From NCBI GenBank assembly GCA_963801825.1, contig CAWDGI010000002.1, positions 85,155-149,154 of the forward strand: DNA of 64,000 nucleotides, given 5' to 3'. Shown in pieces: positions 16,429-58,737 of the stretch. Within the stretch, counting starts at the first letter, position 1; each line of letters starts with the position of its first letter. Source of the DNA: Parachlamydiales bacterium (GTDB lineage Bacteria; Chlamydiota; Chlamydiia; Chlamydiales; Parachlamydiaceae). Position numbers and translations under genes: made by a program. Below the pieces are notes generated by a model. That model was given only the letters and a program-made list of their open reading frames with translations. It had not been told where the DNA came from and did no database searches.

Positions 16429-16440
16429 CAAGTGTTATTT

Positions 16441-16760
16441 GGGCATGGTTCAATGTCAGGTAACAATTTTTTTCGTGTCCGAGTCCGAGTTCCGATCGTG
16501 TTCCGTTCTTCCGCGTTTCCAATCGGAACTCGGACTCGGACACGACCCTGTCATCTCGACTTTGTACATTTTAAGGGGTCGCTAAACGCAATCTTTTGAG
16601 CTATAACGCGTTAAAATTTTTTTGCCAACCCGAATGAGGGTTGGCGAAAAAATTTTAACGCGTTATAGCTCAAAATCTTGCATTTAGCGACCCCTTAAAA
16701 TGTACAAAGTCGAGGTCATGTTACCCAAAAACTCTATTTTTTCAACCATGCCAAAAAATT
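16441..16760. mobile_element. composite nested MITE: element B (as at 2436-2602) carrying an inserted element A hairpin
   Basis: The outer parts 16441-16554 and 16715-16760 match the 2436-2602 element. The inner 16555-16714 is a 160-bp perfect hairpin shared with 24395-24553 and 61908-62067. GTCAT is duplicated at the inner junctions. Confidence 0.75.
16555..16714. repeat. element A hairpin MITE copy 1 (about 75-bp arms, loop CCCGAATGAGGG)
   Basis: ctcgactttgtacattttaaggggtcgctaaacgcaatcttttgagctataacgcgttaaaattttttt gccaaccc…gggttggc… in perfect mirror symmetry. Confidence 0.85.
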
Positions 16761-16897
16761 TCATGAGTTTTTGATATAATTTCTTTAAGTTGCTTGTTTT
16801 CCAAAGAGTCCCATGAATAGTCTTGTCTTAATGGTTTGATAAGAATGCCATATTCGGCTGCGATTGACTTAGGATCGGACATGGCCGCCATTGCCAT

Positions 16898-17718: not shown

Positions 17719-17787
17719 GCAATATGTTTATGACCGAGTTAAAATGCCTAAAAAAGAACGTAAAGAACAAAAAGAGACCAAATTTAA

Positions 17788-17830
17788 CGCCATGTGCGAC
17801 TTTTTTCCGTTCGAGTCCGGGCCCGAGACC
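17788..17830. repeat. partial copy (one terminal arm) of MITE element C
   Basis: CGCCATGTGCGACTTTTTTCCGTTCGAGTCCGGGCCCGAGACCG matches the 7488-7552 arm. Confidence 0.7.
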
Positions 17831-17955
17831 GCATCCTATTACCCATATCTTTTTAGGGTAGCTGATTATCAAAGACTTATGTTTTTCGAGACAATAACGT
17901 AAGTCTTTGATAATCAGCTACCCTAAAAAGATATGGGTAATGGGTAATAGGATGC
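17831..17955. repeat. element D: 125-bp hairpin palindrome (about 50-bp arms)
   Basis: gcatcctattacccatatctttttagggtagctgattatcaaagactta…taagtctttgataatcagctaccctaaaaagatatgggtaatgggtaataggatgc. Confidence 0.75.
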
Positions 17956-23546: not shown

Positions 23547-23600
23547 GGACTAAAACGAAATGTACAAAGTCGAGCTTTGGACTTTAAACTCTTCTCTTGT

Positions 23601-24357
23601 TCAGGCGTTTATCCCACCGTCTACAGTCAAATTCGCACCATTGATGTATGACGATTCTGGGCCGGCGAGAAAAGCGACAAGCGACGCTACCTCTTCCGCT
23701 TTCCCATACCGATCAAGTGGAACATGTGCTATCTGGACTGCGGCCCACTCGCCTGAGGCGGGATTAAGCTCTGTGTCGATTGGACCGGGCTGGACATTAT
23801 TGACCGTAATACCACGTGCTCCAAGCTCACGGGCCAGGCCTTGTGTGAACATTTTGATGGCTCCTTTGGTTGCAGAATAAGGGGCCATGGCAGGCATAAA
23901 CACTCGCTCGCCCACGCAAGAGCCAATCATGATAATTCGTCCGCCTGGCTTCATATGCTTAAGCGCCGCCTGGGTCGCCACAAAGGTACCCGCGAACGTT
24001 GACTGCAAAAACGAGGTCAAACTCGTCAAGAGTTGTCTCCTCAATATCTTCGGAATGGCTATACCGGCATTGTTCACCAGCACGTCAAGCCGACCGAATG
24101 AAGAGACCGTTTTGTCGACGCCGTTTTTCACTGCATTAGCGTCGGAAGCGTCCGCCTGAATCGCAATCGCTTTTCCGCCGGATTGTTCAATCGCCTTTGA
24201 CAACAGAGGCCGCGGCATCAGCACCTTTCGAGTATGTGAGTGCAACACTTGCCCCCTCGGCGGCCAGACGTTTTGCAATGGCGGCACCGATGCCGCGCGA
24301 GCCGCCGGTTACAAGAGCTACTTTGCCTTTTAGAGTATTTTCATTTTTGTTGTTCAT
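23601..24357 (-). CDS. short-chain dehydrogenase/reductase (SDR); N-terminal part in another frame (frameshift ~24195)
   Basis: Reverse translation from 24357 gives [50 protein letters not shown]. After a 1-nt shift it continues [16 protein letters not shown]…NNAGI…YSATKGA (catalytic YxxxK). Confidence 0.7.
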
Positions 24358-24394
24358 TTGTTTTACCCTCTTTTTGTGGAGTAGATTATTTTAC

Positions 24395-24553
24395 TGGACT
24401 TCGGACATTTTAAGGGGTCGCTAAACGCAAGATTTTGAGCTATAGCGCGTTAAAATTTTTTTACCAACCTTCATTTGGGTTGGTAAAAAAATTTTAACGC
24501 GCTATAGCTCAAAAGATTGCATTTATCGACCCCTTAAAATGTCCGAAGTCCAG
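24395..24553. repeat. element A hairpin MITE copy 2 with 7-bp target-site duplication TATTTTA
   Basis: ctggacttcggacattttaaggggtcgctaaacgcaag…cttaaaatgtccgaagtccag, flanked by tatttta on both sides. Confidence 0.85.
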
Positions 24554-24680
24554 TATTTTATAGTGTAAACAAAATTTACAGCTTTGGTTTCCCTTAAGCT
24601 AGACCATTCTTAGGGTGAACCCTAGAAAGTTTAACTTGCTTTTAGGTTCCGCAAGATTCACAACTTTGGTCTTTTAATGA

Positions 24681-56524: not shown

Positions 56525-56774
56525 GCACCGGGTGTAATTAAATCCGGGAGTTTACATTTCAGCGTTTAGGATATCAGGTTAACCGCGAAGGCCGCGAAGC
56601 TAGCGAAGAAAACGCGAAGCGCGAAGAAGGCTTTATAGACTATAGAAAAATCTTCGCGTTTTTCTTCGCTTGCTTCGCGGCCTTCGCGGTTAACCCTTAA
56701 GTCTAAAGCTTAACTGTGTATTAACCCTATCAGTTATTTGTAAACTCCCAGATTTAATTACACCCCTTTGCACC
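56525..56774. repeat. element E: nested palindromic repeat, outer 32-bp inverted repeats around an inner GCGAAG-rich 120-bp hairpin
   Basis: Outer arms GCACCGGGTGTAATTAAATCCGGGAGTTTACA and TGTAAACTCCCAGATTTAATTACACCCCTTTGCACC. Inner hairpin ggttaaccgcgaaggccgcgaag…cttcgcggccttcgcggttaacc. Confidence 0.75.
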
Positions 56775-56877: not shown

Positions 56878-57297
56878 ATGAATAATACAACGAGTGCAAC
56901 AGGCAATATTCTGACAACCTTTACGAGTCCAGACAGTAGTAAACGGATCGATGAATTGAAAAAATTGGCCTCAAAACCGGATACAGATTTTACAGTATCA
57001 TCGCCCAAAACGCAGAGGAATATATTCCACAAAACGAGTACGGAGCATGCTATTCATCGCCTTACAGCTGTGAGGACTGGACTTAGCGAATTAACAACCT
57101 CAAATCCAACAGTAGAGGCGGTTTCCTCTCCCAACTGTTTGACTATACACCCCCCAAAAAGGGTAGGCAAAATTGCACACAACATGCTGTGGTCCAAAAG
57201 ATTGCGTTTTATGCGCCCAAATTTAGTCCAAACTCCAGTTAAAATGTACAAAGTCGAGATCATAGACCGCAAGGTGAAGTGTGCAGAAGTTAATTAA
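56878..57297 (+). CDS. hypothetical S/T-rich protein; the 3' end runs into a fragment of element A
   Basis: 139-aa ORF. The terminal …KMYKVEII is encoded by aaatgtacaaagtcgag (repeat fragment 57237-57255). Confidence 0.35.
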   Translation: MNNTTSATGNILTTFTSPDSSKRIDELKKLASKPDTDFTVSSPKTQRNIFHKTSTEHAIHRLTAVRTGLSELTTSNPTVEAVSSPNCLTIHPPKRVGKIAHNMLWSKRLRFMRPNLVQTPVKMYKVEIIDRKVKCAEVN

Positions 57298-57439: not shown

Positions 57440-58684
57440 CTAAAGCTCTCCATACTTTTCACACTCTTTACCAACAATAAAAAAATGAAATTTTTGTTCT
57501 TCCCAGAAGTATCGAACGGGACGTATCACTTTCCATTCACAATTAGATGTTGTTGAAGGCTGGACAATTTTATACCCCTCTCCCTGTTTTTTATTACAAT
57601 CTTTAATCATGTCTTTCTGTAATTCAAAGAGTGTATTAATTTCTTTGTGTATATTCTTGTTCATCTCTAGATTTTTCTCATCGAGAAGCTCTTTTAAAAA
57701 AGTTTCTTGATTCTTTACCCATTGTTCTACCTCTCTTCTTTTCTTATGTACATGCTGTAACAAATATTCTATTCTTTCATCTGAGAATAAATTAACGAAG
57801 TCCTTGGGTAATGTACCTTTACGTATATTAAACATATCTAAGTCAAAACCGGCGCCCTCTAGAAATTTTTTCTTTATTCTATTTTTTATTTCTGTCACTG
57901 CTTGATGTTCCTGATTTGATGATTTGAGTATCAGGGGTAATAACGATTTTTCGTTGAAGGATAACCTACCTTCTCTAATGACAATGCTGGGAGATTGACC
58001 GCCAGGCGTCGGATTAATAACGAATTCAGGAAATTCTAGAATGAGGGTCTTCTCCTCAAATGGGGTATACTTTGAATGGATGTCGTGGGATTGAAGATCT
58101 CTAACAATCTCATCGATTTTGTGGTAAATATTCTGATAAGACTCGCAGAATCTGTATAGCGCTTCTTCATGTATTTGGTAAGCTTGGGCTATTTTGTCTA
58201 TAAATTCTATTGTATTCCCTTTTATTGTTAATGCTACTTTAAAATTATCTCTAAAAAATGGAGTTTGGTATAAGCTATTCCTCTGGGCTAGAGATAAATC
58301 TCTTGCATATGCTTCAAAATCGCTTCCGGGATTTTTAGGATTCCATGGAACGACTGCGCTTTCAAAGCTATCTATGTGACTTTGCGCAGCAGCAACCGGA
58401 AAAATCTTAAATAAACTTGAAAGGCGAGTATCTAAGAAGTTTAAACTATTGCTAATAATACGGATCAATCCAGAAGAATAATAAATTGTGTTATCAATAC
58501 AAGGACGTAATATTTGTTCTCCTACAATGTAAGCAGGGCTTTTCGGGATAAAGGAGATTGTTCCGTCTGAATGATAGACAATTCTGTTTTTTTCTGAGCT
58601 ATTTGACAAGAAGAATGAATCCATCTGAAAATTTGCTTCTTGGATGGTTCTCGGGGTAATTGTAGCTGATGTCAAATCGTTCAT
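57440..58684 (-). CDS. tandem paralog family member 1 (unknown function, about 415 aa)
   Basis: About 80% identical to the next two genes along its whole length. No recognised domain. Confidence 0.6.
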   Translation of the reverse strand: MNDLTSATITPRTIQEANFQMDSFFLSNSSEKNRIVYHSDGTISFIPKSPAYIVGEQILRPCIDNTIYYSSGLIRIISNSLNFLDTRLSSLFKIFPVAAAQSHIDSFESAVVPWNPKNPGSDFEAYARDLSLAQRNSLYQTPFFRDNFKVALTIKGNTIEFIDKIAQAYQIHEEALYRFCESYQNIYHKIDEIVRDLQSHDIHSKYTPFEEKTLILEFPEFVINPTPGGQSPSIVIREGRLSFNEKSLLPLILKSSNQEHQAVTEIKNRIKKKFLEGAGFDLDMFNIRKGTLPKDFVNLFSDERIEYLLQHVHKKRREVEQWVKNQETFLKELLDEKNLEMNKNIHKEINTLFELQKDMIKDCNKKQGEGYKIVQPSTTSNCEWKVIRPVRYFWEEQKFHFFIVGKECEKYGEL

Positions 58685-58737
58685 AAATCAACCTTTTGAA
58701 AAAAATGAGGGTCAATCTCCGTATTAATGATAAATGA

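Follow-up and report, generated by a model that had tools for sequence, protein, structure and literature searches.

Analysis of a 64-kb stretch of DNA (64,000 nt, hereafter the window) revealed a dispersed 160-bp repeat, element A, which is very probably a MITE of an environmental chlamydia, mobilized in trans by a transposase from one clade of the IS701 family. Its copies, their hairpin, the target-site duplications, one pair of filled and empty sites, and the identity of its ends with those of IS701-clade insertion sequences (ISs) that make 5-bp duplications are directly demonstrated; what is unusual is the host, not the kind of element. The window-encoded MetRS shares up to 72% identity with proteins from Parachlamydiaceae, Waddliaceae and other Chlamydiota MAGs. 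Other features consistent with Chlamydiota are a fused glyQS gene, of which a split remnant survives, as well as a eukaryote-like kinase and an F-box-like protein. Three full copies, one half copy and one end fragment of element A were found in the window:

16555–16714, plus strand: element A copy 1, 160 bp, end variant CTCGACTTTGTACA; its host is the palindromic element B.
24394–24553, minus strand: element A copy 2, 160 bp, end variant CTGGACTTCGGACA, in the orientation opposite to that of copies 1 and 3.
61908–62067, plus strand: element A copy 3, 160 bp, end variant CTGGACTTCGGACA.
About 57152–57258, plus strand: decayed half element A, right arm only (nhmmer E = 4e-4 to 2e-3).
23558–23574, plus strand: solo right-end fragment AAATGTACAAAGTCGAG of the copy 1 variant, 17 nt, exact.

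When the copies were compared in the same orientation, copies 1 and 3 were identical at 146/160 positions (91.3%), copy 1 and the reverse complement of copy 2 at 144/160 (90.0%), and the latter and copy 3 at 156/160 (97.5%). This confirms the three highly similar copies described in an earlier note on this DNA, with identities of 90–97.5% and with the start of copy 2 set at 24394. A 28-mer probe from the arm matched six sites in the window with up to three mismatches, and none in 100 shuffles. Every copy forms a hairpin with arms of 77–78 nt that are 94–95% complementary around a loop of 6–8 nt, and carries the termini CTSGACTTYGKACA at both ends. RNA folding, which had been proposed as a check, gave a minimum free energy of −122 kcal/mol (z = −23), and the DNA fold reached −84 kcal/mol (z = −25). 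Stops interrupt all six frames, none of which stays open for more than 36 codons, so that element A has no coding capacity; its description as a near-perfect, non-coding hairpin therefore stands.

Terminal fragments had also been noticed earlier, and they do exist, although their coordinates proved to be 23558–23574 and 57239–57258. The 20 nt of the second are identical to the end of copy 1 and are the last 20 nt of the decayed half element. They overlap codons near the end of a 139-codon ORF without a family match; the suggestion that this fragment provides the C-terminal codons of the ORF thus holds for codons near its end but not for the stop codon, which the fragment does not supply. Outside the window, on the same 571,531-nt contig, a 35-aa ORF (P0121) is encoded by a MITE arm, and since P0121 is absent from the window, the contig must hold at least one further copy of element A. 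By back-translation, the P0121 peptide would imply a third end variant close to ...ATGGCCAAAGTCCAG.

Every full copy is flanked by an exact duplication, and the second copy of element B in the window provides an empty site for copy 1:

16550–16554 and 16715–16719, unstranded: GTCAT, 5-bp duplication of copy 1, exact; the empty paralogous site reads CCTGTCATGTTACC.
24387–24393 and 24554–24560, unstranded: TATTTTA, 7-bp duplication of copy 2, exact.
61901–61907 and 62068–62074, unstranded: CTGTATG, 7-bp duplication of copy 3, exact.
2436–2598, minus strand: uninterrupted element B, the empty site for copy 1 within the window, with the target GTCAT at 2469–2473.
16442–16752, plus strand: element B hosting element A copy 1 (filled site).

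Element B is a second palindromic repeat of about 146–163 bp; its ends read GGCATGGTT...AACCATGCC, CGAG/TCCGAG motifs form a hairpin in its interior, and its two copies are 91% identical. The repeat search paired both 16474–16554 and 16715–16761 with the continuous segment 2427–2549 on the other strand, with a 5-nt overlap. The uninterrupted element B reads ...CCTGTCATGTTACCC..., and the interrupted one reads ...CCTGTCAT[160 bp]GTCATGTTACCC.... When 165 nt (the element and one GTCAT) were removed from 16436–16765, the remaining sequence was unbroken across the junction and 91% identical to element B at 2423–2600. As this excision restores element B, copy 1 is a true insertion with a 5-bp duplication, GTCAT. 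The filled and empty sites compared here are paralogous element B copies within the window, and they bear out the earlier claim of insertion inside another element. The 7-bp duplication, which had been presented as a trait of the family, is correct for copies 2 and 3 but not for copy 1. A 5-bp reading of copies 2 and 3 works only if each end is extended by a different, non-conserved base. The mobility of element A is thus upheld by a target-site duplication at every full copy, by one filled/empty pair, and by ends that match an autonomous IS family.

Judged by sequence comparison, the terminal CTCGACTTTGTACATTTT is the signature end of one IS701-family clade (NCBIfam NF049999), and ISs of this clade with this end occur in Gamma- and Alphaproteobacteria and in Cyanobacteria. 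The IS on Thiodictyon syntrophicum plasmid pTs417 (NZ_CP020371.1, 187936–189660; positions 2285–4009 of locus L083) is 1725 bp long, has perfect ends CTCGACTTTGGCCATTTT and is flanked by the 5-bp duplication TTAAT; its transposase scores 285.6 bits on the NF049999 model 'IS701 family transposase' (cutoff 170) and also matches Pfam DDE_5. Homologues of this transposase with 42–45% identity were found in Acaryochloris, Sinorhizobium, Methylobacterium, Roseomonas and Polymorphobacter. The homologues were examined on six other plasmids, on five of which complete ISs could be delimited, and the ends of these five read CTCGACTTTG followed by TAC, GCC or ATC. The first 10 nt of element A, CTCGACTTTG, are identical to 11 of the 12 ends of six complete ISs whose transposases match NF049999 or show 42–45% identity to a protein that matches it; the remaining end, at the left of the Microvirga IS (L088), was looked for and not found. 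At both its ends, the Sinorhizobium IS carries the same terminal 14 nt as copy 1. The 5-bp duplication of copy 1 also has counterparts in the Thiodictyon, Acaryochloris, Roseomonas and Polymorphobacter ISs, whereas copies 2 and 3 have 7 bp. The 5-mer CTAAG lies on both sides of three IS701-clade ISs from three unrelated genera (L084, L087 and L089), which suggests a strong, near-palindromic target preference that is absent from the chlamydial MITE copies. Classical IS701 members make 4-bp duplications and the main cluster has a different end consensus (PMC2266710), so that the clade of the NF049999 type is a variant within the family. Relative to the ISs of this clade, element A shares the end CTCGACTTTG(T/G)(A/C)CA and, in copy 1, the 5-bp duplication, but is only 160 bp long, has no transposase gene, and shows 7-bp duplications in copies 2 and 3; furthermore, the two ends of the ISs have only about 18–25 nt in common, whereas the inverted repeat of element A spans the entire element.

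The same ends occur elsewhere in Chlamydiota. BLAST of element A against 1.3 Mb of related chlamydial loci revealed, on the chlamydial MAG contig L072 (19416–19620), the sequence CTCGACTTTGTACATTTTTAG, 20 of whose 21 nt are identical to copy 1. This is the left end of an IS that is cut off by the contig end. An ORF starts 123 nt inside it, and its 27-aa peptide matched the N-terminus of the annotated transposase on Thiodictyon plasmid pTs417, with residues 10–27 aligning with residues 10–27 of the IS701-clade transposases. Past about nt 21 the similarity between the MITE arm and this IS is not significant (p = 0.14), and element A is therefore not demonstrable as a deletion derivative of it. 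A search of all loci for pairs of CTSGACTT ends returned exactly five bounded elements, each with a duplication: the three copies in the window, a 157-bp MITE-like element in a Waddliaceae MAG (L023, 19436–19592) with CTCGACTTT ends and CTATA as its duplication, and, in another chlamydial MAG (L026, 5982–6505), a non-coding 524-bp element that contains nested palindromes and has CTCGACTTT ends and the duplication ACAGA. The latter two are otherwise unrelated to element A. On the sequence of their ends, together with the 5-bp duplication for the CTCGAC type, these elements define a putative transposase–end system in Chlamydiota and three other groups, and element A is very probably a non-autonomous passenger of that system.

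Several weaker matches were set aside. An nhmmer match in L024 (E = 0.04), which does not form a hairpin, was discarded, and tblastn matches to 'LFSxPxWK' in L034, L036, L041 and L077 were C-termini of PrmC, not transposases. The pattern TTTTAAGGGGTCGNTAAANGCAA had no match in GTDB species representatives or in IMG/VR, and its sole match in JGI metagenomes (L002) was a bare 23-nt chance match with no hairpin. The pattern CTCGACTTTGTACATTTT had no match in IMG/VR, and element A had none among PLSDB plasmids. Neither the 64-kb window nor 79 of the 80 related chlamydial loci yielded an IS701-type transposase gene or remnant. A 48-aa query for a chlamydial transposase returned no candidate, and a profile built from six IS701-clade transposases recovered no full-length chlamydial IS among the matches listed; the 120 proteins listed from at least 8000 candidates resemble the alphaproteobacterial queries, and the few named ones are mostly from Alphaproteobacteria.

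The cognate transposase is presumably present in the source genome, or once was. According to the mechanism that we propose, a DDE transposase of one IS701-family clade would move element A, which has no gene of its own, in trans, probably by cut-and-paste transposition. The transposase would recognize termini of ~18–20 bp, CTSGACTTYGKACATTTT, at both ends, and staggered cuts at the target would produce the 5-bp duplication or, with the CTGGAC end variant, one of 7 bp. Beyond the termini, element A is probably an inverted duplication of a single arm, so that the entire 160 bp form a hairpin.

Duplication length tracks the end variant: it is 5 bp in all CTCGAC-type elements and ISs examined and 7 bp in both CTGGAC copies. 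This covariation is a point in favor of an unlikely but serious alternative, in which the CTGGAC (CTGGACTTCGGACA) subfamily is moved by a transposase different from, yet related to, that of the CTCGAC subfamily, with an ISPepr1-type enzyme of the IS4 superfamily as a candidate. ISPepr1-type ISs make 7–8-bp duplications in AT-rich targets and have the end consensus YT-AA-YTT---A (PMC2266710), both of which resemble what is seen in element A, and the three terminal differences between the variants are mirrored at both ends. However, there are only two 7-bp cases, the two subfamilies are the same element except at three terminal positions and have their internal asymmetries in common, and no ISPepr1-type IS with these ends was found. 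Movement of both subfamilies by the IS701-clade transposase remains our preferred reading.

Comparison between the arms revealed that substitutions are mirrored well beyond the termini. Copies 1 and 3 differ at 13 stem positions, ten of which form five mirrored pairs (P < 5e-6; 0 of 200,000 random placements), with changes from one Watson-Crick pair to another at 3/158, 9/152, 11/150 and 52/109. Copies 2 and 3 differ by one further compensated pair, 70/91. Across the three copies there are five such Watson-Crick-to-Watson-Crick pairs, of which 52/109 and 70/91 are located well outside the transposase-binding ends. Every copy retains a 2-nt TC/TC bubble at 38–39/122–123, and all copies therefore descend from one palindromic ancestor. 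The arms evolve in concert (n = 3 copies), by selection on the hairpin or by conversion from arm to arm. Seen alongside the covariation of duplication length and end variant, this tentatively points to a hairpin (as DNA cruciform, single-stranded DNA or RNA) that is selected or active in transposition, or else to the coexistence of two cognate transposase variants with different cut staggers; we give this proposal a low probability. If true, the hairpin would in either case not be a passive by-product.

Mirrored substitutions, including 52/109 and 70/91 outside the ~20-bp transposase-binding ends, would also be expected of RNA or DNA hairpins selected by the host as terminators, stabilizers or RNase III sites, whose function would explain their placement and whose mobility would be incidental. 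The extreme stability of the hairpin fits this explanation, and so does the location of the copies, all of which are intergenic, with two just past stop codons. Copy 1 lies 126 nt after dapA, inside element B, and copy 3 lies 19 nt past the stop of a 102-aa glycine-rich ORF, where the neighboring genes converge. The neighbors of copy 2 are metG and the SDR gene, both on the same strand: the copy lies 127 nt downstream of the metG stop (24681) and 37 nt upstream of the SDR start codon (24357, minus strand). The earlier statement that the copies sit immediately 3' of genes accordingly applies to copies 1 and 3, which follow stop codons, but not to copy 2, which is 5' of the SDR gene. The terminator or stabilizer role proposed with it found no support in the sequence: on neither strand is the stem followed by a T/U-tract, and scanning gave no terminator-like site at any of the three copies. 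At the apical stem, a T-run precedes and an A-run follows on both strands. Rfam gave no match at gathering thresholds, and at E < 1 only plant miRNA hairpin models appeared, with at most 64 bits against cut-offs of 74–211. Promoter-like matches were at chance level relative to shuffles, including one that spans the end of copy 2 and its flank and is directed at the SDR gene, which is not distinguishable from those in shuffles.

These negative scans, the position of copy 2 upstream of a gene and of copy 1 within another repeat, and the fact that purifying selection gives intergenic placement for any transposon make host selection of the hairpin a distinctly improbable account. Element A, moved as a MITE, may still affect neighboring genes, and a 77-bp duplex in a transcript would more plausibly serve as an RNase III substrate or as a block to exonucleases.

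A near-perfect palindrome whose arms evolve in concert is also what a hairpin-dependent single-strand element of the REP/RAYT type or a PATE of the IS200/IS605 type would show, but such elements lack target-site duplications and terminal inverted repeats matching those of DDE ISs, every element A copy has both a duplication and IS701-type ends, and REPs measure 20–40 bp (PMC3733652) against 160 bp for element A, so that this origin is highly improbable. A transposase fragment at the end of the window had prompted the idea of an IS630/Tc1-mariner origin; this was rejected because such an origin calls for TA duplications, whereas those of element A are 5 and 7 bp long and vary in sequence. That fragment, at 63757–64000 on the minus strand, is the 3' end of a transposase gene with a HYTPKHGSWLNMAEIE motif, which we take to be of the IS630 type, and it runs off the window. 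About 210 nt past the transposase stop, at 63538–63547, lies a fifth exact CTCGACTTTG 10-mer (0.14 expected by chance), and the sequence after it is unlike element A.

As an explanation of the copies, an assembly artefact in which a repeat was collapsed or duplicated has practically nothing left to recommend it: several frameshifted genes in the window may reflect indel errors, but the copies differ from one another at 4–16 positions, their flanks are unique, and an independent short-read assembly has the same junction, which already refutes it for copy 2. That assembly consists of Logan contigs of run ERR12035940, which encode identical DapA and MetRS. One of them (L090) reads from metG through the flank into 29 nt of copy 2 and then ends, and another ends 30 nt into element B. 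Breaks inside repeats are the expected de Bruijn behavior at a dispersed repeat, and the junction between flank and copy 2 is thus confirmed independently; the check for artefacts left the copies intact.

Among known systems, Nezha of Anabaena/Nostoc (with partner ISNpu3), Correia/NEMIS of Neisseria, ERIC/YPAL of enterobacteria, RUP of pneumococcus and MITEAba12 are, like element A, non-coding and 100–250 bp long, with IS-like terminal inverted repeats, flanking duplications, predicted hairpins of great stability and intergenic positions. They differ in that no sequence similarity to element A was found and that both the partner IS family and the host phylum are others. The IS partner of Nezha was likewise found only in another species (PMC3184786). 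Neither IS701 nor Chlamydiae come up in a review of prokaryotic MITEs from 2024 (PMC10969869). Rickettsia palindromic elements (RPEs) resemble element A as palindromic dispersed repeats, and their host is an obligate intracellular bacterium. RPEs often insert in frame within genes and are not known to have IS-type ends or duplications, whereas element A is intergenic, with clear ends and duplications.

The window contains other palindromic repeats as well. Element C (7485–7710) is a 226-bp hairpin repeat with 84-nt arms and ends ACGCCATGTGCGAC, flanked by the exact 6-bp duplication CTATTT (7479–7484 and 7711–7716). A 45-nt fragment of its left end at 17787–17831 adjoins another hairpin, suggesting that insertions have nested in or truncated one another here. 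Hairpin repeats unrelated to these occur at three more sites, about 17832–17955, 7172–7264 and 56577–56695, with arms of 52, 44 and 36 nt, respectively. If A, B and C are counted as well, the 64 kb of the window contain no fewer than ten palindromic elements, which is dense for a chlamydial genome.

Among the genes, the fused glyQS gene (2674–5728) is broken up into four ORFs that overlap or adjoin, and the SDR gene (23601–24357) is divided between two frames; these are either pseudogenes or assembly indel errors. An ORF with a eukaryote-like Ser/Thr kinase domain (5746–7071, minus strand) contains imperfect 54-nt tandem repeats at 6310–6448. Three tandem paralogues of ~1.3 kb each occupy 57440–61353 on the minus strand and encode 414, 420 and 342(+77) aa, the third being broken. 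They have no Pfam match, lie in a low-G+C stretch (0.35–0.38) next to the glycine-rich ORF and the F-box-like protein, and look like an effector-type gene expansion.

Our literature search returned no report of chlamydial MITEs, of IS701-derived MITEs or of the end sequence. The general understanding of MITEs is unchanged by element A. Chlamydiae are usually regarded as having stable genomes that are poor in mobile DNA. In the environmental chlamydia studied here, MITEs are nested and were active recently: two copies are 97.5% identical and one lies inside another repeat. Repeats of this kind break short-read assemblies and could serve as strain markers. The CTCGACTTTG end, which is conserved in Proteobacteria, Cyanobacteria and Chlamydiota, is a usable signature for annotating such elements.
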